Source of the DNA: a virus
Strand: one strand, 5' to 3'
Length of the DNA stretch: 35,002 bases
UHGV virus genome: UHGV-0140552
In this document: positions 1-35,002 of the stretch, piece by piece
Numbering within the stretch: position 1 is the stretch's first letter
Layout of the letters: every line of letters begins with the position of its first letter
Notes under the pieces: model-generated
The model's database searches: none
Told to the model about the DNA's origin: nothing
The model's input: only the letters and a program-made list of their open reading frames with translations
Program-made: the position numbers and the translations under genes

Positions 1-1017
1 TCATTTTTTCTGACCACCAACAACCGGCACAATTTTAGTTTTCCTGTCGTAAATCGCCGTTTGTCTCGAATTCTTATGGCCTGAAATCGCCTGTTTCTCC
101 TCGAGGCTTCCTTCCAGATCAGAGACACCTTTCGCTTTCAGATCGTGGAAAGTGAAATCTATCTGCAGGTGTGGGTTCTTTTCCTGCGCTGCGATTTTCG
201 CGTCGCGCCAGCGTGAATTAAAACCGTCACGGGTGTATTTGCTGCCGCTGGTCTGGTGAATGACAAACAGGCTACGGATACCCGGCTTTAACGGCAGGGA
301 ACGGGCGAGGGCGACAGCGGCGCGCAGGCGTGGCGACCATGCTTTGATTTGCTTCACGCCTGTTTTCCCCTGGCGGATAAAGATCCCGGTTTCGCGTATC
401 TGGTCTTCAGTCAAAGCCAGCACATCGCTTTGTCTGGCCAGACACAAATAAGCGATTTCCATGGTGGCGCGAACTACGTCTGGAGCAACATCGTAAACCG
501 CTTTGTATTCTTCGTCGGTGATGTAACGCTCCCGGGCTGCCTCTTTGAACTTCTTAACGCCCTGACAGGGATTATGCTGGACGTAACCCCGCTCATAACC
601 CCAGCGGAATACCCGAGAAAGAAAACTCTTTTCCCGGTTGGCCTGCGTTTTACTGGCCATGCCACGCTGATCCATATAGCGCCGGATGTGTTCCGGTTTA
701 ATTTTATCGGGGTTAACCTTCCCGAACACCGGCAACACTTTGCCTGCGTATTTCGTGTAGTCTTTTCGGGTTTCTGCCGCTAAATCCTGCCAGTCAGGGG
801 AAGACATGAATTGATCGGCCAGAGCCTGAAACGTCTTGCGCTCGACTTCTTCTCCCATGGCTTTTTCATATGCCAGCCATACAGCTGATTGAGGCTCGGA
901 GAGCGCACATAGCCTGATAGCCTTGTTATCTTTATTCCTGAATTCATACGCCGCCTTACCGCGATACACGCGGGGCGGCATCCAGTTATCAGCGGGGTTC
1001 TTACGTTTTCCGGCCAT
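1..1017 (-). CDS. int: Tyrosine-type site-specific integrase (338 aa, stop codon at 1-3)
   Basis: Full ORF on minus strand. C-terminal region has the integrase-like HDLKAKG...SGHKNSRQTAIYDR pattern with a putative catalytic Tyr. Lies at the edge of the phage gene set, directly downstream of a small excisionase-like gene. Confidence 0.88.
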   Translation of the reverse strand: MAGKRKNPADNWMPPRVYRGKAAYEFRNKDNKAIRLCALSEPQSAVWLAYEKAMGEEVERKTFQALADQFMSSPDWQDLAAETRKDYTKYAGKVLPVFGKVNPDKIKPEHIRRYMDQRGMASKTQANREKSFLSRVFRWGYERGYVQHNPCQGVKKFKEAARERYITDEEYKAVYDVAPDVVRATMEIAYLCLARQSDVLALTEDQIRETGIFIRQGKTGVKQIKAWSPRLRAAVALARSLPLKPGIRSLFVIHQTSGSKYTRDGFNSRWRDAKIAAQEKNPHLQIDFTFHDLKAKGVSDLEGSLEEKQAISGHKNSRQTAIYDRKTKIVPVVGGQKK

Positions 1018-1246
1018 TAAAGATAGCTCCGAAGTCTGGTTCTTCCTCCCGCACCGTCTCTTCCTGCTGGTTGCGGTATTTAATCGGGTTCAGGAAATGG
1101 CCCCACGTCGTTTTAGGATGGCCGTCTGCCCTTTCCATGAAAAAGACACCGGCCCGACGTAGCGCTTCACACTGCCTCGATTTAAGTGGGGTCCCCGTCA
1201 GTTCGATCATTTCCTCTCTGGTGATGATGTCGTGATCGTGTCTCAT
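1001..1246 (-). CDS. Putative excisionase / small recombination directionality factor (81 aa)
   Basis: Small basic ORF immediately upstream of int and overlapping it by 17 nt. Preceded by the conserved GAGGAAAGACC-ATG initiation motif. Function assigned by position only. Confidence 0.45.
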   Translation of the reverse strand: MRHDHDIITREEMIELTGTPLKSRQCEALRRAGVFFMERADGHPKTTWGHFLNPIKYRNQQEETVREEEPDFGAIFNGRKT

Positions 1247-1400
1247 GGTCTTTCCTCAGCATGCCGGCTATCGCGTTGTCTGCCGTATCGCAAGCGCGTT
1301 GGATATCGGACTGGGTCAGAGTCCTCTTTCTAACGCTGGCTGATAGCCTGCCAATTTTGATATCGAAATCTGAAAGTAAAAGTGTGCCTGGTTGCCAACG

Positions 1401-1440
1401 TAGCATTGTGATCTCCGGTTCATAGGTAGATCACAATGCT
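1401..1440. repeat. Perfect 14-bp inverted repeat TAGCATTGTGATCT / AGATCACAATGCTA with 12-bp spacer
   Basis: Read directly from sequence. Lies between the 61-aa gene and the xis-like gene, with no T-run on either side. Confidence 0.8.
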
Positions 1441-1455
1441 AACGACAGTTGCGAG

Positions 1456-1641
1456 TTATTTCTGATTAGGCTTAATCAGGTTTGGTTTATTCCGGAACGC
1501 GCCATTTTCGCGGGTGATTTTGGCACTGCGCGGAAAATGCATAGCCAGTTCACAACGCGCGCAGGCTTCGATTATCCCGTTAGTACCGTCCGGAAAAACG
1601 ACGTGAAGCGCGTCGCCTCGTTTCAGTGTGAGTTTCAGCAT
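1456..1641 (-). CDS. Hypothetical small protein (61 aa), start at ATG 1641
   Basis: ORF in the leftward early operon. Its ATG at 1639-1641 abuts the stop codon (1643-1645) of the upstream gene. No recognisable motif. Confidence 0.5.
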   Translation of the reverse strand: MLKLTLKRGDALHVVFPDGTNGIIEACARCELAMHFPRSAKITRENGAFRNKPNLIKPNQK

Positions 1642-1642
1642 A

Positions 1643-2209
1643 TCAGCGCACCTGCAGCGAACGTTCGCCAATCTCAAGGTGAGCGCCCGGCACTGGGTTT
1701 AACAGTTCTTCCGGTATCTCTCCGCCGTCAGCGGTAATCTGGGCCGCCGCTGCCTGTGCTGATTCAATCGCTTCCTTGATGGCTTTCTTGTCCGGAGTGA
1801 CTAACGTCTGAACTGTCACTAATTCATCCGGCAGTAATTCATCATTATCGATCACGACGTTTATAGCTCCCTTACGTGCGGTAAAGGTATTTTTGGCGGT
1901 TTTAACCGTATCCTGACCGGCGGCCAGTAGACACTGGAGAACATATTTCTTCAGGTTCGTGATCTTACCTTCGAATGATTTTTTGCGGGCGGCAAGGCGT
2001 TTGGCCTCTTCATCGCAGGTTTTTGCCAGGCCTTCCAGATTGCGAACGTGGACGAAAACGGCATCCAGTTTATCGCCGAGTTGTAACTCAAGACCTTCCA
2101 TTGTGTCGGCGATCATTTCAGGAGACAGACCAGCACCGTCTTCGTTTTCCAGTAGTGCCTGGAGTTTTGACATATCGGCTGCGATAGCAATTGCAGTGGT
2201 GGAAGTCAT
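1643..2209 (-). CDS. Gp157-like phage protein (188 aa), recombination-module associated
   Basis: Coiled-coil-rich acidic protein with an EEAKRLAARKK...NLKKYV segment resembling the Siphovirus Gp157 family as I recall it. Translationally coupled (TAATG overlap) to the upstream annealing-protein gene. Confidence 0.55.
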   Translation of the reverse strand: MTSTTAIAIAADMSKLQALLENEDGAGLSPEMIADTMEGLELQLGDKLDAVFVHVRNLEGLAKTCDEEAKRLAARKKSFEGKITNLKKYVLQCLLAAGQDTVKTAKNTFTARKGAINVVIDNDELLPDELVTVQTLVTPDKKAIKEAIESAQAAAAQITADGGEIPEELLNPVPGAHLEIGERSLQVR

Positions 2210-4401
2210 TATGCTTTCTCCTCGGCTTTATTCAGTTCTTTAATGCGCCCATCTTTGATGGAGATGAGTCGGCGGAGCCGGCCAGACAGATAACGTTCAT
2301 GCTGCGTGTCGCCGTTGGCCTGGGCGGCTTTAATGTGAACATCGATCTCACGTGCGATAGGGGAAAACACACCGTTGATTTCGTTCACCGTCACGCCATG
2401 CGCCAGGGTATTAGCAACGCGGCTTAATTTATCGTCAAACTCCTGGCGGAGCCGTGCTGCATCTTCGGCTGATTCGCTGGCGTTCTTCAGGTCAAACTCG
2501 GCCTTGTTCTTCTGGCGGTACTCCAGATTGTCGTAAAGCCCCATAAAGATATCGCCACTGAATCCGAGGCCGGATAACGCTTTTTTGGTCGCATCTGTCA
2601 GTGATTTTTTGGCTGCTTCGCCGTCGCAGGTGATCCCGTATTTACTACCGTAAATGTAGGGTGTACAGCCGTATGCTGTTTCCTCACCTCGTACTCCGTT
2701 CAGGATGTACCAGAGCCGGACAGTCACAACATGGTGCTGTTCGTTGACGGTATTACCATTCCCATCAAGAACCAGCTCCCACGATGCGTTGTTGTCTTTG
2801 CCTTTTACTTGCCGAGTGATCGGCGCGCCAATATCGAAACGCTCTTCAACAATATCCACGCCCCAGCCGATGCCCTTAGGGCCAAACTCACGTGTGGCAA
2901 GCATGGTCATGTAGGTACCGTTGATCGAGGTGCCACCGCCGTTCTGTGTGAAAGCCTTAGTAAACCTTTCGTCGGTTTTAAATACGCGTTTCCAGAGGTC
3001 TAAATTGTCTTCCCCGATGATTGGTTTTCCGACAGCCTGCACAACATCCTCAGCGTTAGGCAGGCTTTCAGCGTGAGCGATTTGTTTTGCTAAACGCTCG
3101 GAATCATCAGCCAGTTTTTCAGCCTTAACGCTTAACTTCTCTTCCGGCTCTGCACCTTCACCAGAGGCATATACGCCATAACCCATATCATTGAGCGTCT
3201 CACGCGCCTGTTTGGCCTGGGTGTCGGTTACAACCGGCTGCTGCGCTTCCACTTTTTCGCCCACGTTTGAGGCGGTATTTTGCGTCGCCTCTGGTTGTTT
3301 AACGGATCCTGTCTCGGTTTCCTCAAAGCGGCCGTTGGCCGCCAGCCATGAATCGATATGGCGGCGCAGGCTGTCAGGGAAATGGTAGGTATCTTTCGCC
3401 GGTACGTTTTGTACCACGCCGAAGATGCTGGCGCGGTCGTATTTGAGTATCTGCGGCGTGGTGTGCAGCGATGCTGACCAGCGTTTAAAATCTTCCCGGT
3501 CATCGGAAATCATCTTCTTAGCGTCCAGAAGGTTTCCGGATAGTACCGGCGCATCAGGCGCCAGCGGGAGAAGGGCGGTAGCGATCTCCTGATCCAGCGT
3601 TGCATAAGTGTGTTTATATCCGCGCTTAGAAATTACCACGGGTGTTTTATCATCGGTGCTGGTGCTGGTGCTGGTGCTGGTGCTGGTGCTGGTGCTGGTG
3701 CTGGTGCTGAGAGCGGTATTTTTATATACGCCGGGGGCCAGTTCGTCGCGCTTGCCCGGATTCTCAAGCCAGCGTTTAACGAACTGAGAGATAGCCGCTT
3801 TGCCCGGCGTCTGGTTTTCAAAGTGGGAGAAAATACCCTGAATAAGATTGTTCAGACCTTCCACATGCATGCTTTGAACCGGGAAGTTATTTTGCAGGGC
3901 ACACAGAACATTAAAGTTAAAGCGATCTTCCTCTTCAAATTCCCCATCGTGGTTTTTCAGATTATCCAGATAATCCACAACCTGAGAATAAAGATGGCCA
4001 TCAATCGCCGCGGTACTAAAAAGCAGGACGGCAGCAAAGCGTTCATCAGGGGAAACGGTCATCAGGTCGATCACTTCATCGTCGGCAGGTAAACCTGCAC
4101 CACTTCCGGAAGCGCTATCCTGCGCAGTAGAAACCCATTTTTCACCGTCAAAAGTATGCTGCTGGGCGAATGACTCATCGAACTGGCCAACGGTCGGCAG
4201 CGGCTGGCCTTCAACGTGTTCCCACAGTTTCGGTTTGAAATAGTTGTCACCATTGGCCGGGTATGATTCCCAGAGTTTGCCGGTCATAATGCTTTCGGCC
4301 ACTTTTTTGTTTGGCGCATCGATGGCGATCGCCAGCTGCACGGCGCCGCAGTCTTTAATCGCCGATTTCTTTGGCTCAAATGAGCCGTTGTAGATGGTCA
4401 T
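2209..4401 (-). CDS. Large multidomain protein (730 aa) with C-terminal Rad52/Sak-type single-strand annealing domain and an internal (Ser-Thr)9 linker
   Basis: Segment GCTPYIYGSKYGITCDGEAAKKSLTDATKKALSGLGFSGDIFMGLYDN matches the Rad52-family signature (K-x-A/S-V/L-TD-x-x-K-K/R-AL-x-x-F/L-G). Start placed at ATG 4399-4401, which has the GAGGAAAGACCA RBS motif; the ORF-track start at 4434 is a GTG without a Shine-Dalgarno. Confidence 0.75.
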   Translation of the reverse strand: MTIYNGSFEPKKSAIKDCGAVQLAIAIDAPNKKVAESIMTGKLWESYPANGDNYFKPKLWEHVEGQPLPTVGQFDESFAQQHTFDGEKWVSTAQDSASGSGAGLPADDEVIDLMTVSPDERFAAVLLFSTAAIDGHLYSQVVDYLDNLKNHDGEFEEEDRFNFNVLCALQNNFPVQSMHVEGLNNLIQGIFSHFENQTPGKAAISQFVKRWLENPGKRDELAPGVYKNTALSTSTSTSTSTSTSTSTSTDDKTPVVISKRGYKHTYATLDQEIATALLPLAPDAPVLSGNLLDAKKMISDDREDFKRWSASLHTTPQILKYDRASIFGVVQNVPAKDTYHFPDSLRRHIDSWLAANGRFEETETGSVKQPEATQNTASNVGEKVEAQQPVVTDTQAKQARETLNDMGYGVYASGEGAEPEEKLSVKAEKLADDSERLAKQIAHAESLPNAEDVVQAVGKPIIGEDNLDLWKRVFKTDERFTKAFTQNGGGTSINGTYMTMLATREFGPKGIGWGVDIVEERFDIGAPITRQVKGKDNNASWELVLDGNGNTVNEQHHVVTVRLWYILNGVRGEETAYGCTPYIYGSKYGITCDGEAAKKSLTDATKKALSGLGFSGDIFMGLYDNLEYRQKNKAEFDLKNASESAEDAARLRQEFDDKLSRVANTLAHGVTVNEINGVFSPIAREIDVHIKAAQANGDTQHERYLSGRLRRLISIKDGRIKELNKAEEKA
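3655..3708. repeat. Perfect hexanucleotide tandem repeat (GGTGCT)x9, in-frame within the 730-aa gene, encoding (ST)9
   Basis: Read directly: nine contiguous GGTGCT units on the plus strand; on the minus coding strand AGCACC gives S-T repeats. Confidence 0.95.
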
Positions 4402-4445
4402 TGGTCTTTCCTCTTGGTTACTGGCGCAGGTCACGCGCCGGTTAA

Positions 4446-4769
4446 TTAAAACGGTACGTCGCTTTCTTCAATTGGAGAGTGATCGATGCACAGCAGCTGC
4501 TGAATCTGGTCTTCAATAACACCCAGCTCCTTCTTTGCTTCGGCAGAGATTTTCTCTTTCTTCGCACGAAGGGCATTAACCTGCATACCAATAATGTCGA
4601 TTGGCTCTAAAGCTGGAATGGCAACCTCTACCGTTTTGGTAGTAACGAGGACATACAGATCAGGGTATTGCTGTGACATGTCACAGGTGAATGAGTGATA
4701 AGACGTTGGTAGATATGGGTTGGTTGTGGCCATAACGTAAATAGTTACGGGGATGGTAAGCGCTTCCAT
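4446..4769 (-). CDS. Hypothetical protein (107 aa), first gene of the leftward early operon; C-terminus ...PIEESDVPF
   Basis: ORF with a strong AAGGAG Shine-Dalgarno 5 nt upstream of the ATG at 4769. No recognisable domain. Confidence 0.7.
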   Translation of the reverse strand: MEALTIPVTIYVMATTNPYLPTSYHSFTCDMSQQYPDLYVLVTTKTVEVAIPALEPIDIIGMQVNALRAKKEKISAEAKKELGVIEDQIQQLLCIDHSPIEESDVPF

Positions 4770-4887
4770 AGCGACTCCTTGATGATATATACTCAGAGCC
4801 GATCAGCGGCTCTGTCGTTGGTCTTTCCTCGCTACAGGGTTGGTCCCCTGTAGCATTCTGGGCGGTTTGGTCACTGTCCCGGGTAAA

Positions 4888-4962
4888 TTAGCCCACTTCG
4901 GTGGGCTTTTTTACGCCTGAAGGTTGCCGGTCTTTCCCGGCTGTCAGGGTGGTCAGCCCCAT
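4888..4962 (-). CDS. Possible leader-peptide ORF (24 aa, MGLTTLTAGKDRQPSGVKKPTEVG) ending inside the terminator hairpin
   Basis: ATG at 4960-4962 is preceded by a perfect copy of the GAGGAAAGACCA initiation motif. The stop codon (4888-4890) sits at the base of the 4890-4907 hairpin. Very short and unverified. Confidence 0.25.
   Translation of the reverse strand: MGLTTLTAGKDRQPSGVKKPTEVG
4890..4912 (+). terminator. Intrinsic-terminator-like hairpin AGCCCAC-TTCG-GTGGGCT followed by TTTTT (plus-strand sense); A-tract on the other side, so possibly bidirectional
   Basis: 7-bp GC-rich stem, TTCG tetraloop, T-run 4908-4912. Located in the ~490-bp noncoding leader between the repressor gene and the early-left genes. 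Confidence 0.55.
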
Positions 4963-5169
4963 TGGTCTTTCCTCGTTACTGCGTGAATGCTTTAAAAAAA
5001 TGCCCGGGGCGCCCGGGCCAAGACTACACACAGCAATTCGCATTCGTTGCGGTCTTTCCCGCATGTCATCGTACTGTCGGCGACCCGAAGAATTCGCGCC
5101 CGTCTTTCCGGACTGTCAGAACTGTTTCTGAACAACTGCCGCGTGGTTAGTGCGTCGTTGATGTGATGT

Positions 5170-5198
5170 AATTTAGATAAATCTAACAATTTGGTCAA
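5170..5198 (-). promoter_or_regulatory. Putative early-left promoter (PL-like): -35 TTGACC, 17-bp spacer, -10 TAAATT, overlapped by an operator
   Basis: Reverse complement of 5170-5198 reads TTGACC-17 nt-TAAATT. The operator palindrome at 5173-5186 overlaps the spacer and -10. Confidence 0.4.
5173..5186. promoter_or_regulatory. Operator-like 14-bp palindrome TTAGATAAATCTAA (OL-like)
   Basis: One of three sites fitting TTAGA-N4-TCTAA. A swapped-arm relative, TCTAACTGATTAGA, lies at 5244-5257. Confidence 0.6.
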
Positions 5199-5263
5199 TG
5201 ATTAAATTAGAGAAAACGAACACAATGGGCGTAAAAAAATGCATCTAACTGATTAGAAAGGGA

Positions 5264-5650
5264 TTATTTTTGTTTGCGGGCTTGCAGTAACTCCTCAAAT
5301 AAACGATTGAAACCGTCTACTTTTTCGCGAAGTTCCGTTAAATGCCGCTCTTTTTCAGATTCTGGGAGTGACGAAAAGAGTTTTAAAAGCTCTGTTTCTC
5401 GTTCATCTAATGGCGGCGGGGTGTCTACCGGGGTTCCCGGAGTGGCGGCTTCATCGCCGTAAAGTATCCAGGTAGGGCTGCATTGAAGTGCGTTACTTAA
5501 AGCGAAAAGGTTTTTTCCGCCAGGCTCACTATCACCGGTCTCCCACTGGGAGATAGTGACGTGCGCGACGTTAACCAGCTTCGCTAAAGCGCGCTGAGTA
5601 AGTTTGAGATCTTTTCTACGCGCTCTGATGCGCTCACCTGGCATTGTCAT
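5264..5650 (-). CDS. Phage repressor, HTH XRE-family (128 aa), RacR/CI-like, no S24 peptidase domain
   Basis: N-terminal HTH (LTQRALAKLVNVAHVTISQWETG). Divergent from a cro-like gene, with palindromic operators in the 80-bp intergenic region. Too short to carry a LexA-like autocleavage domain. Confidence 0.85.
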   Translation of the reverse strand: MTMPGERIRARRKDLKLTQRALAKLVNVAHVTISQWETGDSEPGGKNLFALSNALQCSPTWILYGDEAATPGTPVDTPPPLDERETELLKLFSSLPESEKERHLTELREKVDGFNRLFEELLQARKQK

Positions 5651-5652
5651 AG

Positions 5653-5666
5653 TTAGATAATTCTAA
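5653..5666. promoter_or_regulatory. Operator-like 14-bp palindrome TTAGATAATTCTAA (OR-like, proximal to the repressor gene)
   Basis: Palindrome read from sequence. On the minus strand it contains TAGAAT about 10 nt upstream of the repressor ATG, suggesting a leaderless PRM-like transcript. Confidence 0.6.
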
Positions 5667-5672
5667 ATTTCC

Positions 5673-5701
5673 TTGACTTCGTTATCTCGAACACCTAATT
5701 T
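5673..5701 (+). promoter_or_regulatory. Putative early-right promoter (PR-like): -35 TTGACT, 17-bp spacer, -10 TAATTT
   Basis: Sequence match. The -10 is weak, so this is a tentative call. Confidence 0.35.
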
Positions 5702-5702
5702 G

Positions 5703-5716
5703 TTAGAAAAATCTAA
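5703..5716. promoter_or_regulatory. Operator-like 14-bp palindrome TTAGAAAAATCTAA (OR-like, proximal to the cro-like gene)
   Basis: Palindrome lies between the putative PR -10 and the CAGGAGGG Shine-Dalgarno of the cro-like gene. Confidence 0.6.
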
Positions 5717-5730
5717 CAGGAGGGTGTTTC

Positions 5731-5925
5731 ATGTTAACAACTGATGCGATCAAATATTTTGGTAGTAAGAGAAAACTGGCTGAGGCCGCTGGCGTTAAGG
5801 CTCCTACTGTCTATGCGTGGGGGCGTTTGGTTCCTGAAGGTAAAGCGGCTCGTTTGTCTCTGATGACTGATGGCGAACTTGTTTATGACCCAAAGGCTTA
5901 CCAACTGCCAGCCAAATCAGCTTAA
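5731..5925 (+). CDS. Cro-like / YdaS-family small HTH regulator (64 aa)
   Basis: Small ORF divergent from the repressor, with a strong Shine-Dalgarno (CAGGAGGG). HTH-like segment KRKLAEAAGVKAPTVYAWG. Same arrangement as racR-ydaS in the E. coli Rac prophage. Confidence 0.75.
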   Translation: MLTTDAIKYFGSKRKLAEAAGVKAPTVYAWGRLVPEGKAARLSLMTDGELVYDPKAYQLPAKSA

Positions 5926-5987
5926 CAATTAGCGGCATCGAAATCTGATTACGCTTAATCAATTTTCAGCGACAGGAGACGCTCGAA

Positions 5988-6434
5988 GTGGAATACCTCG
6001 AAGAACTTAAACGAGAGATCTTTAACTGGGCAGCGGAAAGCGGGCAGGAGCTGGTTGCTATCGAGATAAGCCGCATGTGGTTTCGTCTTGGTGGTAATAC
6101 CGGTTCGCTGAAGCTGCACCAGATCGAAGATGCAGATGGAAACGCCGACTGGCGGGCAATCAACAACAACCGCCAACAAATTTTTCGTTGGTTGCGAGGC
6201 GAGACCAAAGCCGCGAGAGCCAAAACTCTGGCGCTGGTCAAAGCGATGGAAGCGGCGCTGCCGGCAGAACGTTACGCGCGCTTGGGTATGTCCACTCAGT
6301 ATTTAATTTGTGTGGCCATTCGCGAGTTTGCCGCGGCGATTATCGCGTTGTTACTCGACGCCAGAGACGGGCCGCAGCAAGTCGCCAGAGCATTGCAAGC
6401 TATGCGAGAAACACAGCGCCTGACCAGCGTTTAA
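5988..6434 (+). CDS. YdaT-like / CII-like regulatory protein (148 aa), GTG start
   Basis: Follows the cro-like gene. AGGAG Shine-Dalgarno 9 nt upstream of GTG 5988. The QQIFRWLRGETK segment is reminiscent of the YdaT family (recalled from memory, unverified). Confidence 0.55.
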   Translation: MEYLEELKREIFNWAAESGQELVAIEISRMWFRLGGNTGSLKLHQIEDADGNADWRAINNNRQQIFRWLRGETKAARAKTLALVKAMEAALPAERYARLGMSTQYLICVAIREFAAAIIALLLDARDGPQQVARALQAMRETQRLTSV

Positions 6435-6454
6435 CCTGTACCGAGGAAAGACCA

Positions 6455-6676
6455 ATGAGAACACAAGACCGCATCACCTGGCGGAACGGGTTTCGCCGGA
6501 ACGGGGTACAAGTCCCGATAGAAGATATCGAATTGATTTTCGAGGAACGTCGCGCTGCTGCGCTGACAATCTGGGAACGCTACGAGCTGCGCAAAGCAGA
6601 CCTGCAGGAAGCGGGACTCACCCAGAAAGAATATGAAATCGCCTGCCGCCAGCTGGCTGACTCGCTGGGGATCTGA
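6455..6676 (+). CDS. Hypothetical small protein (73 aa)
   Basis: ATG 6455 is preceded by the conserved GAGGAAAGACCA motif. The longer ORF-track call (6188-6676) overlaps the YdaT-like gene and lacks an RBS. Confidence 0.6.
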   Translation: MRTQDRITWRNGFRRNGVQVPIEDIELIFEERRAAALTIWERYELRKADLQEAGLTQKEYEIACRQLADSLGI

Positions 6677-6678
6677 GT

Positions 6679-7671
6679 ATGAATATTTTGCCATTACTCG
6701 ACAGGCCGATCGCCTTCCAGCGTAGTTTCATTCGCCTGAATATCGGTGTGACGGCTGCACTGTTCCTGTCTCAAATGACTTACTGGACTAACCGATCCGA
6801 CGATGATGGATGGGTATATAAAACCCAGGAAGAATGGGAGGAAGAAACAGGCCTTTCCCGTTACGAACAGGAGGGGGCGCGTAAGAAACTTCGCTCAATT
6901 GGTGTACTGCTGGAAAAAAAGAAAGGTGTACCTGCTCGTCTTTTCTACAAGATTGATAATGATGTTTTATTTCAATCACTTGTAGCCGCAAACAAGAATG
7001 CGGAAAAACCACATACTGGAATGCGGAAAACCAGCAAACAAGTAAGTGGAAAACCAGCAAACTTTCTTACAGAGAATACTACAGAGAATATATATACCCC
7101 TAACCCCTTAGAGGGGGAAGGCGTTGAGTTAATTCTTTCTGATGCACAAAAAGCGCTGGAATTTTACAACGAGCAAACCGGTACCCGCTGCCGTGACCTG
7201 AAACCGTTTGTGATGATGCTGACGCCGACCACCACCCGGGAAGGTTACACCCTGGACGAATTGCAGTTAGTTATCCGCTGGGTGCTGGCCACATGGCGCC
7301 GCCGTGGCGATAGCCTGCCGAAGCCAGCGAACATCTGCCGGGTAAACCGCTTTGATGGTTATCTCGCTGACGCTGAAGCATGGGCGGTGACCGAAGCCGA
7401 TATTGACCCCGAAGCCGTTATGAACGGCTACAACGAAATTTTTGCTGACGCTCTGCCTGCTGCTGAACTCGACACCGACCGCCGCCGGATGATCACCCGT
7501 CTGGCCGCCCATATGAAAAACAAAACCACGGGCGCATTTCTGGGCTATTTCGAAAAATTCCGCGCTGACGCCTCCGATTTTTACTTTGGTGAAAATGGCG
7601 GATGGCGCGCCAGCTTTGACTACCTGATGAAGCCTGAAACATTGCGTAAAACTCGTGAGGGATCGCTATGA
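6679..7671 (+). CDS. Phage replication initiation protein (O-like / replisome organiser, 330 aa)
   Basis: Sits immediately upstream of, and translationally coupled to, the DnaB-type helicase gene. N-terminal DNA-binding-like region and a C-terminal region typical of phage replication proteins. Confidence 0.7.
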   Translation: MNILPLLDRPIAFQRSFIRLNIGVTAALFLSQMTYWTNRSDDDGWVYKTQEEWEEETGLSRYEQEGARKKLRSIGVLLEKKKGVPARLFYKIDNDVLFQSLVAANKNAEKPHTGMRKTSKQVSGKPANFLTENTTENIYTPNPLEGEGVELILSDAQKALEFYNEQTGTRCRDLKPFVMMLTPTTTREGYTLDELQLVIRWVLATWRRRGDSLPKPANICRVNRFDGYLADAEAWAVTEADIDPEAVMNGYNEIFADALPAAELDTDRRRMITRLAAHMKNKTTGAFLGYFEKFRADASDFYFGENGGWRASFDYLMKPETLRKTREGSL

Positions 7672-28446: not shown

Positions 28447-28449
28447 CTA

Positions 28450-28968
28450 TTACGACTTACATGATTCGGGGGAAACCCCAAACCCAAACATGAGGGTTTT
28501 CCCTGAATCACTGTAGTAATTGATCATTATTTTTTTATTTTCTTTTCGGGTTTCGTAGAATAGCCGCTCTTGAGATGACACTGGGTAAAATCCATCTGGT
28601 GCACAATACAAATCCCTTAAATTTTTCAATGTTGAATTTTTAGCGTCTTCTGATGTAAATTTTATAAAATCGTCTGTGTAAACATTGGCATTGTAACTAG
28701 ATATGGTTTTACTTCCTTCCACATAGTGAGTATTAGTTTCACTAAAATCTGCGTTTTCTTTATAGGTTCGCAAGTGTAATACCGATACATGGATCTCAAT
28801 TTTTTTACCAGTGTCGATACCGTTAATGACCGTATAGTCGGTATATGGATTGGTAATCTGTATTCCTGGTCCGGATATAGGAACGATATATTTAGAGTCA
28901 TCAACTAAATCGGTTGATGCGAATGCTGCAAAGTGAAAGATTAGCAACAATGGAATTAATATCTTCAT
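28450..28968 (-). CDS. Moron: secreted/periplasmic protein with signal peptide (172 aa)
   Basis: AT-rich island, opposite strand. N-terminal signal peptide MKILIPLLLIFHFAAFA|STD. AAGGAG Shine-Dalgarno. Confidence 0.7.
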   Translation of the reverse strand: MKILIPLLLIFHFAAFASTDLVDDSKYIVPISGPGIQITNPYTDYTVINGIDTGKKIEIHVSVLHLRTYKENADFSETNTHYVEGSKTISSYNANVYTDDFIKFTSEDAKNSTLKNLRDLYCAPDGFYPVSSQERLFYETRKENKKIMINYYSDSGKTLMFGFGVSPESCKS

Positions 28969-28987
28969 TCTATTTACTCCTTGTGAT

Positions 28988-29003
28988 AGTCAGGATTCCG
29001 ACC
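28988..29003. repeat. Hairpin motif variant AGTCAG-GATT-CCGACC (copy 2 of 4), upstream of the terminase genes
   Basis: Read from sequence; shares the GATTC core and flanking arms with the other three copies. Confidence 0.7.
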
Positions 29004-29050
29004 TCAAAAAGAATACATCATAGCTCTATGGATAACCACGGGGCTTTTTT

Positions 29051-29392
29051 ATGCATTCAGATTACAAAACTCGCCTTACTGCTCTTAGCGATAAGCTCAC
29101 CGATGTAGTTCTGGAAGAAGCCGATCCGGACAACTGGCCGGGGGCAGGGAAGGAAATCACAAAGCACACTAAACAGGAACGCGGTGATCGGTACTGGCAT
29201 AAGAAGAACGCGGCCGCATCGCTGACGCTGCTGGTAAAAGTCCATTCGCTGATTGGCATGCATACGCGCGGGGGGACGCCTAAACCCGGCGAGGATCCGG
29301 ACGATGAAGCATTCCGCCTGGGGCAACAGGTATCTGCGGCTGAACGGGCAGCACAGGAAGTTATCGAACGCATACAACAGCGGAAAAAATGA
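29051..29392 (+). CDS. Putative terminase small subunit (113 aa)
   Basis: Small protein translationally coupled (ATGA) to the large terminase gene. Assigned by position. Confidence 0.45.
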   Translation: MHSDYKTRLTALSDKLTDVVLEEADPDNWPGAGKEITKHTKQERGDRYWHKKNAAASLTLLVKVHSLIGMHTRGGTPKPGEDPDDEAFRLGQQVSAAERAAQEVIERIQQRKK

Positions 29393-30999
29393 TTTCATTC
29401 GTCGCCTTTTTCATCATATGGGCGGAGCGGATGGGGTGGGAGGTTCCCGACTGCCATTATCGAGCCTGCCACTGGTTGGAACACCGCGGGGATCTCGCGG
29501 TGCTTCGCTGTTTTCGTGGCTTTGGTAAATCTACCATTCTGGCGGTGTATAACGCATGGCGATATTACCAGAACCGCCAGTACCGCATTCTTCACCAGTC
29601 TGAAGCTGACGGCACCGCGTACAAAACCAGCCGCGATACGCAGAACGTTTTACGCAATCACCCACTGACCAAAGGCATGCTACCGGACGGACAGGGAACC
29701 GTTGAACAGTGGTGGGTTAACGGCTCTCTGGATATGCGTAACGGCAGCATGTACGCAAAGGGGATCCTCTCTAACGTTACCTCGGCCCGCGCTGATGAAT
29801 GCCAGAACGATGACGTAGAAGTACCCCGCAATATCCAGACGCCAGAGGCGCGGGAAAAGCTGCGTTATCGTCTCGGTGAACAGACACACATTCTTGTCCC
29901 CGGCGGGCGAAAGCTGTTTATCGGCACGCCGCATACCCACGATAGCCTTTACGATGAGGTTGAATCTATGGGCGCCGACTGTCTGACCATCAAACTATTC
30001 GGTAAAGAATTTAGAATCGAGGAAAAACAGGCCACCGCGAGCCGTTACTCGTTACCGTTCCGGCCGGAATATGTTTTCGTCGGTATTCACATTGGCGCGC
30101 GACTGCTCGTTGAAGGTGTTGATTATCGTCTTAACGATGACGGTATCGAGTTTGCCGAGGCTCCCGGCACCACGGTTGACTGTTACGCCGATTGTGAATG
30201 GCCAGAAAGGTTCACTCCGGAGGAAATGACAAAGCGCCGTCGCGAGACTCGCACAATTAACGAATGGGACAGCCAGTACCAGCTGCACAGTAAACCGGTT
30301 GGCGAGGTTCGTCTCGATCCCGACCGCATACGCGAATACAACGTACAGCCTGAAATCCGGTACGCGAACCGCTCCTGCTCGATGTGGCTTGGCCAGACGC
30401 AAATTGTTGGTGCTGTTGCCTGGTGGGATGTGGCCACCGGCAAAGTTAAGGCCGACGCCTCGGCGTTCTCTCTGATTTTCACCGACGCACGCGGGCATCT
30501 GTACTGGCATGTTTGCCAGGGGCTTACGGGCGAACTGGCGGAATTCGACGACAACGACAAAATCACCGGCGGTCAGGTGATGCAGATTAAAGAGCTGGTG
30601 CTTAAATACCAGATCCCGCTGGTCTGCGTCGAGGTGAACGGCCCGGGCAGCTTTGCCGGGAAATTGCTGATTCAGGCACTAAAGGGTACCGGCTGCGGCG
30701 TACGGGAAGAATTCAGCGTGACCAATAAACAAAAGCGCATCCTCGATGCATTCGAAGCGCCGCTGTCGTCGCGCTTCCTCTGGGCGCATACCGACGTGCT
30801 CGACGGCCCAATGTATGACCAGATGCGCGACTTTAACCCGGCGCTGACTAATCAGCCAGATGACTTTATCGACTCTGGCTCTGGCGCAATCAGCTCAACA
30901 CCAGTGCGCATTGGTAAATTGGTCGGGATTCCGACCGCACAGGCGCGGGAACATTGGCAACCAAATGATGGCGATCACATGGTCGCCGTAGATTACTAG
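29389..30999 (+). CDS. Terminase large subunit (536 aa)
   Basis: Walker A-like FRGFGKST near the N-terminus, size, and coupling to the small-subunit gene. Confidence 0.75.
   Translation: MISFVAFFIIWAERMGWEVPDCHYRACHWLEHRGDLAVLRCFRGFGKSTILAVYNAWRYYQNRQYRILHQSEADGTAYKTSRDTQNVLRNHPLTKGMLPDGQGTVEQWWVNGSLDMRNGSMYAKGILSNVTSARADECQNDDVEVPRNIQTPEAREKLRYRLGEQTHILVPGGRKLFIGTPHTHDSLYDEVESMGADCLTIKLFGKEFRIEEKQATASRYSLPFRPEYVFVGIHIGARLLVEGVDYRLNDDGIEFAEAPGTTVDCYADCEWPERFTPEEMTKRRRETRTINEWDSQYQLHSKPVGEVRLDPDRIREYNVQPEIRYANRSCSMWLGQTQIVGAVAWWDVATGKVKADASAFSLIFTDARGHLYWHVCQGLTGELAEFDDNDKITGGQVMQIKELVLKYQIPLVCVEVNGPGSFAGKLLIQALKGTGCGVREEFSVTNKQKRILDAFEAPLSSRFLWAHTDVLDGPMYDQMRDFNPALTNQPDDFIDSGSGAISSTPVRIGKLVGIPTAQAREHWQPNDGDHMVAVDY
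30921..30936. repeat. Hairpin motif GGTCGG-GATT-CCGACC (copy 3 of 4), inside the 3' end of the terminase gene, upstream of the tail fibre gene
   Basis: Exact copy of the 18203-18218 hairpin and its 20-nt context. Confidence 0.8.
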
Positions 31000-31016
31000 C
31001 CGCCGGAGTTCCTCGT

Positions 31017-33536
31017 ATGTCGGTACCGAACCAGACACCCTATAACATCTATACCGCCAACGGGCTGACGACTGTCTTTGCCTATGAGTTTTACCTGATC
31101 AGCGCCAGCGATATTCAGGTCACAATCAACGGCAACGAAGTAACGTCCGGCTATACAGTGTCTGGTGTGGGTAATACTGGCGGTGGCGAAGTTACTTTTC
31201 TGACCGCGCCGGCCAATGGCGCTACAGTCATTTTTGAACGTGTAACGCCGACTTACAGGCTCACTGATTACCAGGACAACGGCGACCTGCTGGCCGATAC
31301 AGTTAACAAAGATTTTGACCGTCTCTGGATGGCTACTCAGCGCGCGTTTATTTATCTCGGAGTGGCCCTAAGTCGCCCGCTGTTCGGCGGTGGACCTTTC
31401 AACGCTAACGGCTACCGGATAGCAAATCTGGCCGATCCAGTTAACGATCAGGATGCAGCTACTAAAAAATTTGTAATTGAAAATGGAAAAATTAATCTAG
31501 CTCGTACTCTACGCGTTCCGGAGTCTAGCATCACACCGTTACCTTCCATTGCAGAACGAAAAAATAAAATCGTTGCAATGGATAATAATGGCAATCCATT
31601 GATGGTATTGCCTTCGAGTGGAAGTGCAGCAGATGTAATGATTGAGTATGCCAAACCGACAGGTAGCGGGCATATAGGGGTTCTTACTGGAGGCACCGTT
31701 GAAGATGCAATAAAATACGTAACCCCTGAAATGATAAGGATTAATGGTGAAAGATATATTCACGGCATCACTGCTGATGCAACTAAATTTCTACAGGCAG
31801 CTATAGATTACGGAAAAGCTAATAACCTTCCGGTATATTTAACTAAAATGTATCCGTGCATATCTTCACCGATAGAGTTTAATTTGCCATTCGACGATGG
31901 GACTGTATACCCAGGGTGGATAGGGAACGGTGATTCAAATATTGCTCCTGAAATACCAGTTAAGGCAAAAGCAGCACTGCGTGTTTATGATGATTCAATG
32001 ATTGTTGGTGAAAACCAACACAATTGTGGGATTATTGGTAATTTTTCAAAAACTGCGGGACCATGGGATCATACATCTTCCATGGGTCTATACATCGCAG
32101 GTGACAGCGGACCAGATCAATACATAAAGTATCACCTTTCTGATTTCAGGATTAGCGGATTCTTTATTGGGCAATGGGTAGACGGGACTGTAAACCGCTG
32201 TGTAGAAAATAATATGATGTACTCAGGGTGTGCCATTCCTGCTTGTTATCAAGGATCTGATTCTCTGGCGCAAACTGGGCTGACATTATATTGGTATAAT
32301 ATTACAGGCCCTGTTTTTGGCGGGCGCTGGCTAACGAGAAATCATGCATACGCGTCTCAGTACCTTCCGCCGTACCCGGCATCAGATATTCATCGGGCGG
32401 GATGGAATGATTCGTACCATGTAGACAAGTTTCATTATTATGGTGATACCGGCATGGACTGGACACATCCAGCATATGCCGCTCTTGACACTTGGTTTGA
32501 TACGTATGTTTTCAAGTCTGCAAACTGCTTGCCTACGGCCAGCGGTGGTCGGTTGTCAAATAATCAGCAGAATGGGGTTTACCCAGTTGATACCTATAGA
32601 GGTATAGCTGGGCGCGCAAGAACTATTATTTCACTTCCGGGAAGGGAGATATTGCATTGCAATATTGGTGAGGCTAAAGTGCTGTGGTCTCCAAGAACGC
32701 CATTCTACCACTCTGCTCAATTCGTTGACGGATTTAAATCATATGTTGGTAACAGTAAAATAAGGACTCTTATACTGGAAAGGGTAGGAATCATCAAGTA
32801 TGGCCTTGGTGATGTTGCTGGAAATAGATTTAATGTTAATAATGTTGATCCCTACGAACCATCTCTTTCAACATTTCCAGCGATGGCAACAAGAGGAAAT
32901 ATTTTCGCCCTTGATATTGTAAAAGGTGGCGCGGTTCAGGCTGCCCCAGTTAATGAATTTAACGGCACAAGAATCGGTGCCGGTGAGAATATAGTTGCTC
33001 AAAGAAAGCTTGGAGATAATTCAAACTATCGTCTTTTCGGTCTTCAGGAGTTAAACGGAACAAATTTATCCGATAAGTATGTTTTTAATCGAAATGATGC
33101 CTATATGCCGCCAATAGCTTTTCCCGGTGGTAATGCTGCTCAGTTTAAGTATCTTTATGGCTCATTCACACCAACTATTACAATTGGCGGGGCAAGCGTA
33201 ACGCCATCATCCATTACTGGAATTTACCGTAGGTTTGGTGATGTTGTTCGTTGCGATATAAGAGTCAGATCAACCTCTTTACTGGTTAGTACTGCGGGAG
33301 CCATAGTCATTAGTGGTCTTCCTTTTACAGCCGCCTCAATACAGGAGGGTGGGTCTAAAGGAAGCATAATTCTAAGCACGGCTACAGGAGTTTTTGTTAT
33401 GCCGCTTGTTCCTGCAGGGACAAATCAAATGACGATTATAAAATCGTCAGCCCAAGAAATATATTCTCAAGCAGCTGGTACTTTTGATTTTACTCTCCAG
33501 TGTACTTTTGATTATGTTGTTCCTTTTAATTCATGA
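31017..33536 (+). CDS. Tail fibre / tailspike (839 aa) with T7-like N-terminal adaptor domain and an AT-rich distal receptor-binding region
   Basis: N-terminal segment NGYRIANLADPVNDQDAATKKFV parallels T7 gp17 (RGRRIVNLANAVDDRDAVPFGQL). GC content drops after about 31450. Confidence 0.8.
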   Translation: MSVPNQTPYNIYTANGLTTVFAYEFYLISASDIQVTINGNEVTSGYTVSGVGNTGGGEVTFLTAPANGATVIFERVTPTYRLTDYQDNGDLLADTVNKDFDRLWMATQRAFIYLGVALSRPLFGGGPFNANGYRIANLADPVNDQDAATKKFVIENGKINLARTLRVPESSITPLPSIAERKNKIVAMDNNGNPLMVLPSSGSAADVMIEYAKPTGSGHIGVLTGGTVEDAIKYVTPEMIRINGERYIHGITADATKFLQAAIDYGKANNLPVYLTKMYPCISSPIEFNLPFDDGTVYPGWIGNGDSNIAPEIPVKAKAALRVYDDSMIVGENQHNCGIIGNFSKTAGPWDHTSSMGLYIAGDSGPDQYIKYHLSDFRISGFFIGQWVDGTVNRCVENNMMYSGCAIPACYQGSDSLAQTGLTLYWYNITGPVFGGRWLTRNHAYASQYLPPYPASDIHRAGWNDSYHVDKFHYYGDTGMDWTHPAYAALDTWFDTYVFKSANCLPTASGGRLSNNQQNGVYPVDTYRGIAGRARTIISLPGREILHCNIGEAKVLWSPRTPFYHSAQFVDGFKSYVGNSKIRTLILERVGIIKYGLGDVAGNRFNVNNVDPYEPSLSTFPAMATRGNIFALDIVKGGAVQAAPVNEFNGTRIGAGENIVAQRKLGDNSNYRLFGLQELNGTNLSDKYVFNRNDAYMPPIAFPGGNAAQFKYLYGSFTPTITIGGASVTPSSITGIYRRFGDVVRCDIRVRSTSLLVSTAGAIVISGLPFTAASIQEGGSKGSIILSTATGVFVMPLVPAGTNQMTIIKSSAQEIYSQAAGTFDFTLQCTFDYVVPFNS

Positions 33537-33543
33537 GGCTAAT

Positions 33544-33813
33544 ATGACTTTCAGAGTGACGCAGACCATAGGAAAATCTATAGCATATCCAACGCTAGGT
33601 GTATGGATGCCATCAGAAGATACATCGATTGAAGTTGAATACCAGGCTGTATCGTTAATATCGCTAAATAATGGAACAGCGACTGTTTCATTTAAAGTTA
33701 GCATTGATGGTTGTCTTTCCTGTGGGGAGCTTACCCATTCTTTTGTGTATTCTGGGTCAGGAAGCCCTCTTGAAGAGGCAGAGGAATCACTTAAAAGAAA
33801 ACTCCAAATATAG
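33544..33813 (+). CDS. Hypothetical protein (89 aa) downstream of the tail fibre gene
   Basis: ORF in an AT-rich region with ATG at 33544. Possibly a fibre accessory protein. Confidence 0.45.
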   Translation: MTFRVTQTIGKSIAYPTLGVWMPSEDTSIEVEYQAVSLISLNNGTATVSFKVSIDGCLSCGELTHSFVYSGSGSPLEEAEESLKRKLQI

Positions 33814-33823
33814 AATTTCATTT

Positions 33824-33839
33824 AGTCAGGATTCTGACC
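33824..33839. repeat. Hairpin motif variant AGTCAG-GATT-CTGACC (copy 4 of 4), upstream of the lysis cassette; followed by ATCACTCCA at 33861-33869
   Basis: Read from sequence. Confidence 0.7.
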
Positions 33840-33895
33840 TTAGCTTCGCCTTACCCTCGCATCACTCCACATAGTGATCCCCATGGGGGTAAGGC

Positions 33896-34126
33896 ATGCG
33901 AATGAAGAATTTACCGGATGTGGCGGCTGGCACGTCGTACATCACATCCACTGTCAGCGGGAGCTACTGGCTGCTGCAACTTCTCGATAAGGTAAGCCCC
34001 AGCCAGTGGGCGGCTATTGGCGTACTGGCCAGTATTGTTTTTGGGCTGCTTACCTACCTCACTAATTTGTACTTCAAAATCAAAGACGACCGGCGGAAGG
34101 CACAGGACTATGAGCAACAAAGCTAA
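33896..34126 (+). CDS. Holin (76 aa), probably pinholin-type
   Basis: Small protein with a hydrophobic helix ([23 protein letters not shown]) and charged C-terminus, immediately upstream of and overlapping a SAR-endolysin gene. Confidence 0.6.
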
Positions 34127-34646
34127 GTTCAGCGCCGCTATGCTGGCGCTTCTGGCCGCCGGTGCATCTGCACCGATACTGTTCGATCAGTTTATCAGCG
34201 AAAAAGAAGGTAACGCGCTGGTGGCCGTTGTTGACCCCGGCGGTGTGTGGTCATTGTGCCACGGAGTAACCGTTATAGATGGCAAGCGTGTCATTAAGGG
34301 CCAAAGAGCAACTGAGGAACAGTGCAGGAAGGTAAACGCCATTGAGCGTGATAAGGCGCTTGCCTGGGTAGAAAAGAATGTGCTCGTTTCTTTGACGCCG
34401 CCGCAGAAGGTCGGCATAGCCTCATTCTGCCCGTACAACATCGGGCCGGGTAAATGCTTCCCCTCAACGTTCTATCGCAAGCTGAACGCAGGCGACCGTA
34501 AAGGTGCATGCGCGGAGATCCGGCGATGGGTGTTCGACGGAGGCCGGGATTGCCGACTGACCAAAGGCCAGAAGAATGGCTGCTACGGGCAGGTTGACCG
34601 CCGCGATCAGGAAAGCGCTTTGACGTGCTGGGGGCTGTACGAATGA
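34110..34646 (+). CDS. SAR endolysin (lysozyme, 178 aa)
   Basis: Weakly hydrophobic Gly/Ala-rich N-terminal signal-anchor ([17 protein letters not shown]) followed by a lysozyme-like catalytic segment ([26 protein letters not shown]). ATG 34110 lies within the holin 3' end. Confidence 0.75.
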
Positions 34647-35002
34647 ACGGAAAAACCAAACTGGTGATTGTTGGTGGCGTGCTGGCGGTATGCGCCGGGA
34701 TTTACTGGGCGGGGTATCTGAAAGGCTGGTACGCACATTCAGAGCAAGTAAACAGCCAGGCTAAACAAAGGCTACCGAAGCAGGAAAAGGCAGTTGCCGC
34801 TGGTGAGCAGAAAGCAGCGACGGCGAACGCCGAAGCCAAAGTGATTTACCGTACCGTTTATCGTGATGTGGTGAAATATGTCAATGACCCGAATCGTACT
34901 GTGTGCCAGTTTGATCCTGCTGCTGTGCAGCTGCGCCAACGAGCAATCGACGCGGCCAACGCCATCCCCGGATTTGATGAACCGACCGTGCAAGATAAGT
35001 AA
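34643..35002 (+). CDS. Rz-like i-spanin (119 aa)
   Basis: N-terminal TM helix followed by a charged, Ala/Gln/Lys-rich periplasmic region. ATGA overlap with the endolysin. Stop codon at 35000-35002. Confidence 0.7.
   Translation: MNGKTKLVIVGGVLAVCAGIYWAGYLKGWYAHSEQVNSQAKQRLPKQEKAVAAGEQKAATANAEAKVIYRTVYRDVVKYVNDPNRTVCQFDPAAVQLRQRAIDAANAIPGFDEPTVQDK
34884..35002 (+). CDS. Rz1-like o-spanin lipoprotein, embedded in the +1 frame of Rz; 3' end runs past the window
   Basis: ATG 34884 opens MTRIVLCASLILLLCSCANEQSTRPTPSPDL..., with a lipobox (LLCSC) and Pro-rich mature region. Not in the ORF track because it is truncated by the window end. Confidence 0.55.
   Translation, partial: MTRIVLCASLILLLCSCANEQSTRPTPSPDLMNRPCKIS

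Follow-up and report, generated by a model that had tools for sequence, protein, structure and literature searches.

Yersinia phages YeP4, YeP5 and YeP6 (MK733262-4) are induced temperate podoviruses of Y. enterocolitica O:9, with podovirus morphology observed by electron microscopy. They were the only matches found when the virus genome UHGV-0140552 was compared by megablast with 50,697 phage records. The stretch of this genome analyzed here, referred to as the window, consists of 35,002 nucleotides and extends from the stop codon of the integrase gene to the stop codon of the Rz gene of one prophage. YeP4-6 share with it a size of about 35 kb, an integrase and a repressor, and have no annotated RNA polymerase (RNAP). 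Their late modules have the same gene order, with the terminase genes between the core proteins and the tail fiber (29051-30999 in the window, in agreement with a preliminary description made from the sequence alone), and show 63-88% protein identity (portal, 82%; major capsid protein, 86-88%; nozzle, 77%; large terminase, TerL, 80%). The YeP4-6 homologue of a 98-aa XRE-type helix-turn-helix (HTH) protein, designated HTH98 here, is 51% identical. In contrast, the early module of YeP4-6 consists of PolA, DUF2800, VapE-primase and SNF2 genes with a LexA-type repressor, whereas the window carries O, DnaB and YdaS/YdaT genes, and the integrase and att site also differ. The window was assigned to the YeP4-like lineage by its related portal, PF19821 capsid, nozzle and T7-type TerL, by the order portal, core proteins, small terminase (TerS)/TerL, fiber and lysis genes, and by 70-88% amino-acid identity together with collinear nucleotide blocks. 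Taken as a whole, the data are probably best explained by a YeP4-like temperate podophage in which a lambdoid early module is joined to a self-contained late module, the latter being transcribed by host RNAP from five HTH98-activated promoters.

Salmonella phage epsilon15 (Uetakevirus) and Bordetella phage BPP-1 (Rauchvirus) have portal, adaptor and nozzle proteins 28-35% identical to those of the window, the portal and nozzle values being 28-33%, with E values down to 3e-82 by tblastn. As in the window, both are temperate podophages with lambda-like early and lysogeny genes, a T7-supergroup portal, adaptor, nozzle and set of internal virion proteins (IVPs), no RNAP, and lysis genes and integrase at the right end. 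The gene order shared with epsilon15 is small MC-protein, portal, gp5/Bbp19, protease-like protein, capsid, adaptor, nozzle, GNAT, gp14-like protein, SLT protein, tailspike, lysis genes and int. However, the epsilon15 and BPP-1 terminases are of the P22/Sf6 type and are encoded upstream of the portal gene, whereas those of the window are of the T7 type and are encoded downstream of the core proteins. TerL had no tblastn match in epsilon15 or BPP-1, and the capsid family of these phages differs from the PF19821 capsid of the window. In its tail proteins and IVPs, the window is closer to this subgroup than to T7, but it does not have the P22/Sf6-type terminase of the subgroup.

T7 has a homologous portal family (PF12236), a homologous nozzle family, a gp14-like protein and a fiber N-terminal adaptor, in a similar gene order. 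By tblastn, T7 gp19 was 32% identical to TerL over 196 aa (E 1e-18), and the fiber N-terminus matched both epsilon15 gp20 and T7 gp17, whereas the portal, adaptor, nozzle, capsid and scaffold gave no direct tblastn similarity to T7; the capsid belongs to PF19821 and not to the T7 gp10 family. T7 itself is virulent; it encodes an RNAP that is served by 17 cognate promoters, as well as a DNA polymerase and a primase of its own. The window encodes no single-subunit RNAP; it carries an integrase, an excisionase, repressor/cro genes, and O and DnaB instead of virulent T7-type replication, and its relatives are integrated at tRNA-Leu, all of which sets it apart from Autographiviridae. The presence of the portal, tubular tail proteins A and B, and IVPs (one with a lysozyme domain) in one ensemble places it in the T7 supergroup, or transient-tail podovirus group. 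Epsilon15 and BPP-1 have been described as a sister subgroup to T7 in one "transient tail" homology group, in which RNAP could reassort independently of the tail genes (Hardies et al., 2016). The virion genes had been called T7-like in the preliminary description. Judged from these comparisons, this is correct at the supergroup level only: the gene order is near that of T7, but the portal, adaptor and nozzle are nearer to epsilon15 and BPP-1, and only TerL and the fiber N-terminus match T7 directly. On the same grounds, a temperate genome that lacks an RNAP is what is normally seen in this branch.

Other RNAP-less elements are related at a greater distance. The portal matched PDB entries 8ck0/8ck1 (E 6e-55), whose source is probably Cobetia phage Carin-1, and the portal and nozzle also matched entry 9efk from Legionella LME-1. 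LME-1 is an RNAP-less mobile element with a T7-type tail and virion by cryo-electron microscopy. The capsid family is also present in Acinetobacter, Alcaligenes, Ralstonia and Liberibacter phages and in HTVC010P-type pelagiphages, which have been reported to contain neither RNAP nor DNA polymerase, some of them being able to integrate. LME-1, the HTVC010P-type phages and the source of 8ck0/8ck1 are distant in sequence and have other hosts and early modules. Prophages with this portal lineage were found in at least 72 species-representative genomes, ranging from Enterobacter to Pseudomonas, Burkholderia and Acinetobacter.

How complete is the window? A metagenome contig (L081; ENA ERZ1743278 NODE_75) was found to be 100% identical to window positions 28017-35002 and 1-1095. 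Its positions 6987-7426 are 440 bp that join the two window ends and contain the end of Rz1 and attP with the 3' half of tRNA-Leu, so that the full genome measures 35,442 bp (window plus the 440-bp attP junction). This contig is the circular (or tandem) form of the phage genome, and its closed Rz-attP-int junction points to phage DNA that was excised, replicating or in tandem in that sample. The exact tail-fiber protein was found on 17 public contigs; the integrated copies have host genes at both flanks, tRNA-Leu being next to int and yecA next to Rz. The gene map obtained from open reading frame (ORF) listing and family scans is clean and without gaps. An Rfam scan at gathering thresholds and a tRNA scan of the window gave no match. 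The window is almost the entire 35.4-kb genome of a temperate podophage with tRNA-Leu as its integration site, and belongs to the YeP4-like lineage in the T7 supergroup.

No phage RNAP and no evident Q antiterminator had been recognized in the preliminary description, which pointed to the region beyond position 35002 as a place to look for the former. Both absences were upheld. No ORF of the window had an RNAP family match, every ORF of more than 700 aa is otherwise assigned, T7 RNAP had no tblastn match in the window or in 72 related loci, and the window contains no match to Q families of Pfam or PHROG. Because the genome closes after 440 bp of attP, there is no room left for an RNAP gene, and none was found there. 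Since there is no phage RNAP, the late genes are transcribed by host RNAP. Late transcription control had been described as unexplained, but a concrete candidate now exists in the form of HTH98 and five conserved promoter-like sites:

14113-14409, + strand: HTH98, a 98-aa XRE-type HTH protein, first gene of the late module
14375-14407, + strand: P-late1, palindrome GTCGGGAAACTGAC with -10-like hexamer CACAAT, before orf146 and the 6.7-like, portal, Bbp19 and scaffold genes
18205-18237, + strand: P-late2, palindrome GTCGGGATTCCGAC with hexamer AACAAT, before the capsid gene, with a 126-nt leader to the capsid ATG
28989-29021, + strand: P-late3, hexamer CATCAT, before the terminase genes
30922-30954, + strand: P-late4, hexamer GAACAT, inside the 3' end of the TerL gene, before the fiber gene
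33825-33857, + strand: P-late5, hexamer TACCCT, before the lysis genes

The sites were obtained by repeat finding and follow the consensus wwTrGTCGGGAwwCCGACc, with five + strand sites in the window versus 0.09 expected by chance. At all five, a 14-bp palindrome, GTCGG-N4-CCGAC, lies exactly 13 nt upstream of the -10-like hexamer. Among 104 non-identical instances, the positions 14 and 18 nt past the 14-mer are A (90%) and T (88%), respectively, with neighbors below 0.3 bits. This fixed-distance A/T corresponds to the A(-11)/T(-7) signature of the sigma-70 -10 hexamer and would therefore place the palindrome at -39 to -26, centered at about -32.5, in place of a -35 element. The same five sites are present in the prophages of E. 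coli 23GD11002 and B379, and four are present in YeP4. The first two have positional counterparts in prophages of Pseudomonas, Stenotrophomonas, Massilia, Herbaspirillum and Burkholderia, where the portals are only about 50% identical; motif, spacing and positions are kept in these other bacterial classes. Three of the five mark the points where nucleotide conservation with relatives restarts after variable moron slots. The palindrome does not occur in the immunity region, and its occurrence is independent of the type of early module. The layout mirrors that of T7, in which phi6.5, phi10 with Tphi, and phi17 correspond to the sites before the portal block, capsid and fiber and to the terminator after the capsid gene. 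The palindromes before the late operons of epsilon15 differ (ATTACC-N5-GGTAAT) and are also found in its immunity region. Neither the palindrome nor the CG-element strings described below were found in full-text literature searches, subscription literature not being covered.

Two further features were noted near these sites. The capsid leader (18244-18369) contains a hairpin (CCGGCGGGGACGCCGG) and a second, degenerate copy of the palindrome, GCCGGGAAACCGAC, at 18322-18335 without a -10 hexamer, both conserved in enterobacterial relatives. In five Pseudomonas relatives (L024 at 7270, L025 at 7729, L026 at 7737, L027 at 8117 and L030 at 7970), a hairpin and T-run lie about 40 nt past the first palindrome-promoter. 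They would give a very short terminated transcript, that is, a leader/attenuator or a small RNA.

Among the conserved genes of the late module, that of HTH98 comes first, directly upstream of the first palindrome site. Homologues that are 31-97% identical were found in most loci with this portal, whatever the early module. The family comprises 1,259 representatives at E <= 1e-3, has no Pfam domain and carries only "hypothetical" names. Both HTH98 and the motif were found in 39 loci and neither in 10, whereas HTH98 was found alone in seven and the motif alone in two. Conservation of the gene and the motif reaches from Enterobacterales to Burkholderiales. Two Burkholderiales loci have altered half-sites: the changes are symmetrical (GCCGA...TCGGC and GGCGA...TCGCC) and leave the spacing intact, and in the same two loci the conserved recognition-helix residues GWK read SWQ or SWS. 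The HTH98 fold resembles those of controller C-proteins and of the N-terminal domains of P22 c2 and lambda cI, the best structural matches being C.EcoT38IS, C.Kpn2I and C.AhdI; it is a small, dimeric HTH protein of XRE fold, as are the controllers of restriction-modification (R-M) systems. HTH98 is a candidate for binding the palindromic box and activating transcription on the basis of the -35 location, the co-occurrence and the co-variation.

Small dimeric HTH activators that bind a palindrome at or near -35 of promoters with a weak or absent -35 element are known from P2 Ogr, Mu C/Mor, lambda CII and R-M C-proteins, and several late operons are controlled per factor, as proposed here. The center of the site, about -32.5 here, differs from -41.5/-43.5 for Mu C and -55 for Ogr. 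HTH98 shows no sequence-family membership among those activators (no Pfam match).

The preliminary description of a mosaic temperate phage, with T7-related virion genes behind lambda-type early genes, held for all of the genes listed and their places. Window positions 1243-13947 are about 85% identical in nucleotide sequence to Stenotrophomonas phage vB_SmeS_BUCT708 (OM816834), whose virion genes are a different, epsilon15-like set. (These genes look like those of an epsilon15-type podovirus, whereas the phage is named a siphovirus; both its host label and its morphotype label look doubtful.) The rest of the window, beginning near 14073, is 78-85% identical to prophages of E. coli. That of E. 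coli 23GD11002 has the same lambdoid early module and the same tRNA-Leu site, whereas in that of E. coli B379 the early genes are PolA/DUF2800/VapE/SNF2 and the integrase is specific for dusA. Early and late halves meet in the 13958-14112 spacer. The same late module was found with the RepO/DnaB early type in Enterobacter, Raoultella, Serratia and Symbiopectobacterium, and with the PolA/VapE early type in Pluralibacter, Pectobacterium and Symbiopectobacterium (VapE only in Trabulsiella). The genes for holin, endolysin and Rz accompany the late module, and in B379 they are 64-78% identical. Because they are kept with it there, the lysis cassette, which had been counted with the lambdoid genes, is lambdoid in protein type (holin, SAR-like lysozyme and Rz/Rz1 are all present) but is not part of the lambdoid module. 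By these comparisons, the late half, from HTH98 to Rz, forms a self-contained module that is preceded in different genomes by early modules of at least two unrelated kinds.

The left edge of this module is marked by another conserved element:

14081-14099, + strand: conserved 19-nt element CTCGCGCACGCGCGCGTTT, at the early/late module junction

Its consensus is CTCGCGC(A/G)(C/T)GCGCGCGTTT, with the near-invariant form CTCGCGCRYGCGCGCGTTT, and it is invariant in four relatives. A single + strand copy, upstream of the portal gene, is present in each of 51 sequences from Enterobacterales to Acinetobacter, namely the window, L001 (17465), L002 (16068), L004 (16020) and 47 of the loci L008-L075. 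There are no mismatches even in Acinetobacter prophages with portals only 44% identical. The core is strictly alternating pyrimidine-purine, and the variants are transitions only. The element may be the packaging/terminus signal used by the T7-type terminase, or it may serve the HTH98 gene as a leader or, possibly, as a promoter.

How, then, would the late genes be expressed? In the proposed mechanism, the early rightward operon would read through into the HTH98 gene, and an HTH98 dimer would bind the palindromes, whereupon host RNAP would start at the five promoters, which have no -35 element. With a promoter in front of it and a terminator behind it, the capsid unit would have its mRNA boosted as by Tphi in T7. 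Such an "activator plus promoter set" would be portable and would do the job of T7 RNAP and its promoters, in a manner comparable to R-M controllers, lambda CII and P2 Ogr. Because the late module would bring its own regulator and promoters, it could work behind unrelated early modules, with neither Q nor RNAP needed. A broader form of this proposal is held tentatively, at somewhat less than even chances: that the late half is a portable expression-and-assembly cassette across Gamma- and Betaproteobacteria, in which a family of XRE proteins of about 90 aa (more than 1,200 cluster representatives, no Pfam entry) activates -35-less promoters via GTCGG-N4-CCGAC, replacing T7 RNAP and its promoters, and in which the 19-nt CG element serves as a packaging/terminus signal.

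Several points weigh against activation by HTH98. We infer the start sites, the activation and the pairing of HTH98 with the palindrome from sequence. Seven loci contain HTH98 but no recognizable motif. A generic sigma-70 scan gave promoter counts not above those of shuffled sequences and left the five late sites unflagged, which is attributed to the missing -35 element. Class II activators do not usually have a palindrome centered at -32.5, and this position would be just as compatible with a repressor or a Q-like loading site. The latter would fit antitermination, in which the palindrome is a site in a constitutive promoter resembling the Q-binding element (QBE), and HTH98 or another late protein loads on RNAP there and lets it pass terminators, for example that following the capsid gene. 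The palindrome indeed lies between the -35 and -10 positions, like the lambda QBE; the intrinsic terminators about 40 nt past the first site in the Pseudomonas relatives look more like the pR'-tR' arrangement of antitermination; and no palindrome precedes the gp11-like gene, 3' of the strong terminator at 19292-19311. However, HTH98 is a plain XRE fold without similarity to any Q family, the P-late1 leader of the window has no terminator, and five sites, one per gene block, make read-through control unnecessary. Antitermination is therefore considered unlikely.

The other function allowed by the position of the palindrome, repression, is suggested by the PHROGs label of the HTH98 family, "transcriptional repressor", which likewise weighs against activation. 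HTH98 would then be a repressor or timer with the palindromes as operators, or the palindromes would be RNA hairpins for processing or stability, and the late genes would be transcribed mainly by read-through from the early rightward promoter. The epsilon15 palindromes are annotated as repressor sites before its late operons, and GGUCGG-GAUU/GAAA-CCGACC could form a 6-bp hairpin, the pairing of which is kept in some variants. On the other hand, promoters without any -35 element need an activator, and the motif, as described above, is missing from the immunity region and does not depend on early-module type. Several copies break the stem (A-C or G-A), and an RNA hairpin leaves the fixed-distance A(-11)/T(-7) unexplained. 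Repression or RNA processing is thus likewise regarded as unlikely. Nothing was found in favor of a third alternative, raised solely because misassembly can produce mosaics. That the window is a defective or chimeric assembly artifact is hardly credible, because all genes are intact, the same architecture is seen in independent complete genomes and in the 17 contigs, and the closed Rz-attP-int junction was assembled from a metagenome. Activation of host RNAP by HTH98 at the five sites remains the preferred explanation.

The remaining features of the late half are as follows:

Opens the block 14438-17804, + strand: orf146, first gene of the head-completion block
Between orf146 and portal, + strand: 73-aa MCxS protein (epsilon15 gp3/T7 gp6.7-like)
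15114-16739, + strand: portal (PF12236, E 4e-121)
16736-16969, + strand: Bbp19-family protein (evidence for the head-completion block: PF25181, phrog_3742, phrog_458)
16956-17804, + strand: 282-aa scaffold/protease-like protein (same block evidence)
17836-18135, - strand: 99-aa moron, at a site of variable insertions that separates the scaffold gene from P-late2
18370-19275, + strand: major capsid protein (PF19821, E 2e-70)
19292-19311, + strand: strong intrinsic terminator 3' of the capsid gene, from a terminator scan; analogous to T7 Tphi
19335-19898, + strand: gp11-like adaptor (phrog_394; match to the adaptor chain of PDB 8ck1)
19898-21889, + strand: gp12-like nozzle (PF25675, phrog_376; nozzle chain of PDB 8ck1, E 4e-102)
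21889-22341, + strand: GNAT
22344-22832, + strand: gp14-like protein (phrog_418; PF24072 below threshold)
22838-25552, + strand: 904-aa internal protein with SLT domain
25552-28446, + strand: 964-aa IVP, IVP-D-like (phrog_342)
28450-28968, - strand: 172-aa moron whose N-terminus resembles a signal peptide, at a variable site before P-late3
29051-29392, + strand: 113-aa putative small terminase
29389-30999, + strand: T7-type large terminase, TerL (PF22530)
31017-33536, + strand: tail fiber/spike with T7 gp17-type N-terminal adaptor (PF03906, E 2e-11; phrog_22560)
33544-33813, + strand: 89-aa ORF 3' of the fiber gene
33902-34126, + strand: P21-type holin (PF04971)
34110-34646, + strand: lysozyme with an N-terminus like that of signal-arrest-release (SAR) endolysins (PF00959)
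34643-35002, + strand: Rz (phrog_2536 in the lysis segment)
From 34878, + strand: Rz1, cut by the window end

The 73-aa protein had been called gp6.7-like. It shares with T7 gp6.7 only the N-terminal MCxSxPK motif, the size and the position, and no BLASTP alignment was obtained; the motif is also present in epsilon15 gp3. Both reverse-strand moron slots sit directly upstream of late promoters 2 and 3, and relatives have different or no inserts there. The 99-aa moron had no family match, and its region is not conserved in relatives. NCBIfam and PADLOC gave no match for this moron, orf172, orf146, the putative TerS or three early ORFs (orf222, orf180 and orf133), and PDB sequence searches with the capsid, the SLT protein and the 964-aa IVP returned nothing meaningful.

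The early half contains the following features:

1-1017, - strand: tyrosine integrase (PF00589, PF22022)
1001-1246, - strand: DUF4224 excisionase, Xis (PF13986; phrog_1266 also matched in the int/xis segment)
1643-2209, - strand: Gp157/Gam-like protein of the leftward recombination genes (segment evidence PF05565, phrog_2489)
Leftward segment 1643-4434, - strand: 741-aa exonuclease with a probable ATG at 4401 (segment evidence including a weak NF007259 match)
5264-5650, - strand: HTH_3 repressor (PF01381)
5731-5925, + strand: P22_Cro/YdaS-like protein (PF14549, 54 bits; PF15943, YdaS, below its cut-off)
5988-6434, + strand: YdaT/CII-like protein (PF06254, 76 bits)
6679-7671, + strand: O-like initiator (phrog_428, phrog_9773)
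7668-9056, + strand: DnaB helicase (PF03796, PF00772)
9095-13957, + strand: nin-like region, starting with a 222-aa protein without assignment, followed by a theta-like protein
10164-10754, + strand: MT-A70 methylase, in the nin-like region
12579-13175, + strand: DUF1367/NinB, in the nin-like region
13165-13662, + strand: HNH-AP2 endonuclease, inserted between DUF1367 and Ref
Ends at 13957, + strand: Ref nuclease, in the nin-like region

These matches to Pfam and PHROG families agree with the lambdoid assignment of integration, immunity and replication made earlier, the YdaS match being below threshold. The divergent repressor/cro genes, the CII-like gene and the O-type initiator with an intragenic origin, together with the helicase, are lambdoid; three 23-nt iterons were found by repeat search at 6986-7054, inside the initiator gene. 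No N- or Q-family match to Pfam or PHROG was obtained in the window, and the late module ends with the lysis genes, unlike the lambdoid layout, in which Q lies just upstream of a lysis cassette that heads the late operon. The product of orf107 equals lambda N in length and is encoded in the leftward operon downstream of the repressor gene; it was rejected as an N analogue because it is not arginine-rich and has no family match. Between orf107 and the repressor gene, at 4928-5118, are three copies of CGGTCTTTCCCGGCTGTCA with an operator-like look. A ribosome-site/start context, GAGGAAAGACCAATG, is repeated at five early genes (4397-4413, 4814-4830, 4958-4974, 6435-6458 and 9083-9101), and at least four tandem copies of a 12-nt unit (GGTGCTGGTGCT...) at 3655-3715, inside the 741-aa exonuclease gene, encode a short low-complexity peptide repeat.

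Variable content was also found in the nin-like region. The homing-type HNH segment (13172-13744) has no counterpart at that spot in E. coli 23GD11002 or BUCT708. An AT-rich island at 10860-12200 (33% GC) contains two ORFs (180 and 133 aa), neither of which matched anything in Pfam, PHROG, NCBIfam or PADLOC, and is probably a cargo or defense hot spot. The same slot is occupied by DUF2971 and IS110 in E. coli 23GD11002 and by an RloB/ATPase pair in BUCT708.

What does this mean for the family? The phage itself is ordinary for its lineage, and the apparent paradox of T7 virion genes without T7 RNAP is removed. The late-expression cassette is apparently undescribed, and its regulator and promoter set seem to accompany the virion and lysis genes from one bacterial class to another. 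This provides a testable late-control model for widespread, unstudied prophages of Klebsiella, Enterobacter, E. coli, Yersinia, Pseudomonas, Burkholderia and others, as well as a promoter consensus usable for late-operon annotation and phage engineering. It also shows how phage modules stay functional after swaps between genomes. A portable cassette, if true, would explain how a T7-type virion module is plugged behind unrelated early modules.

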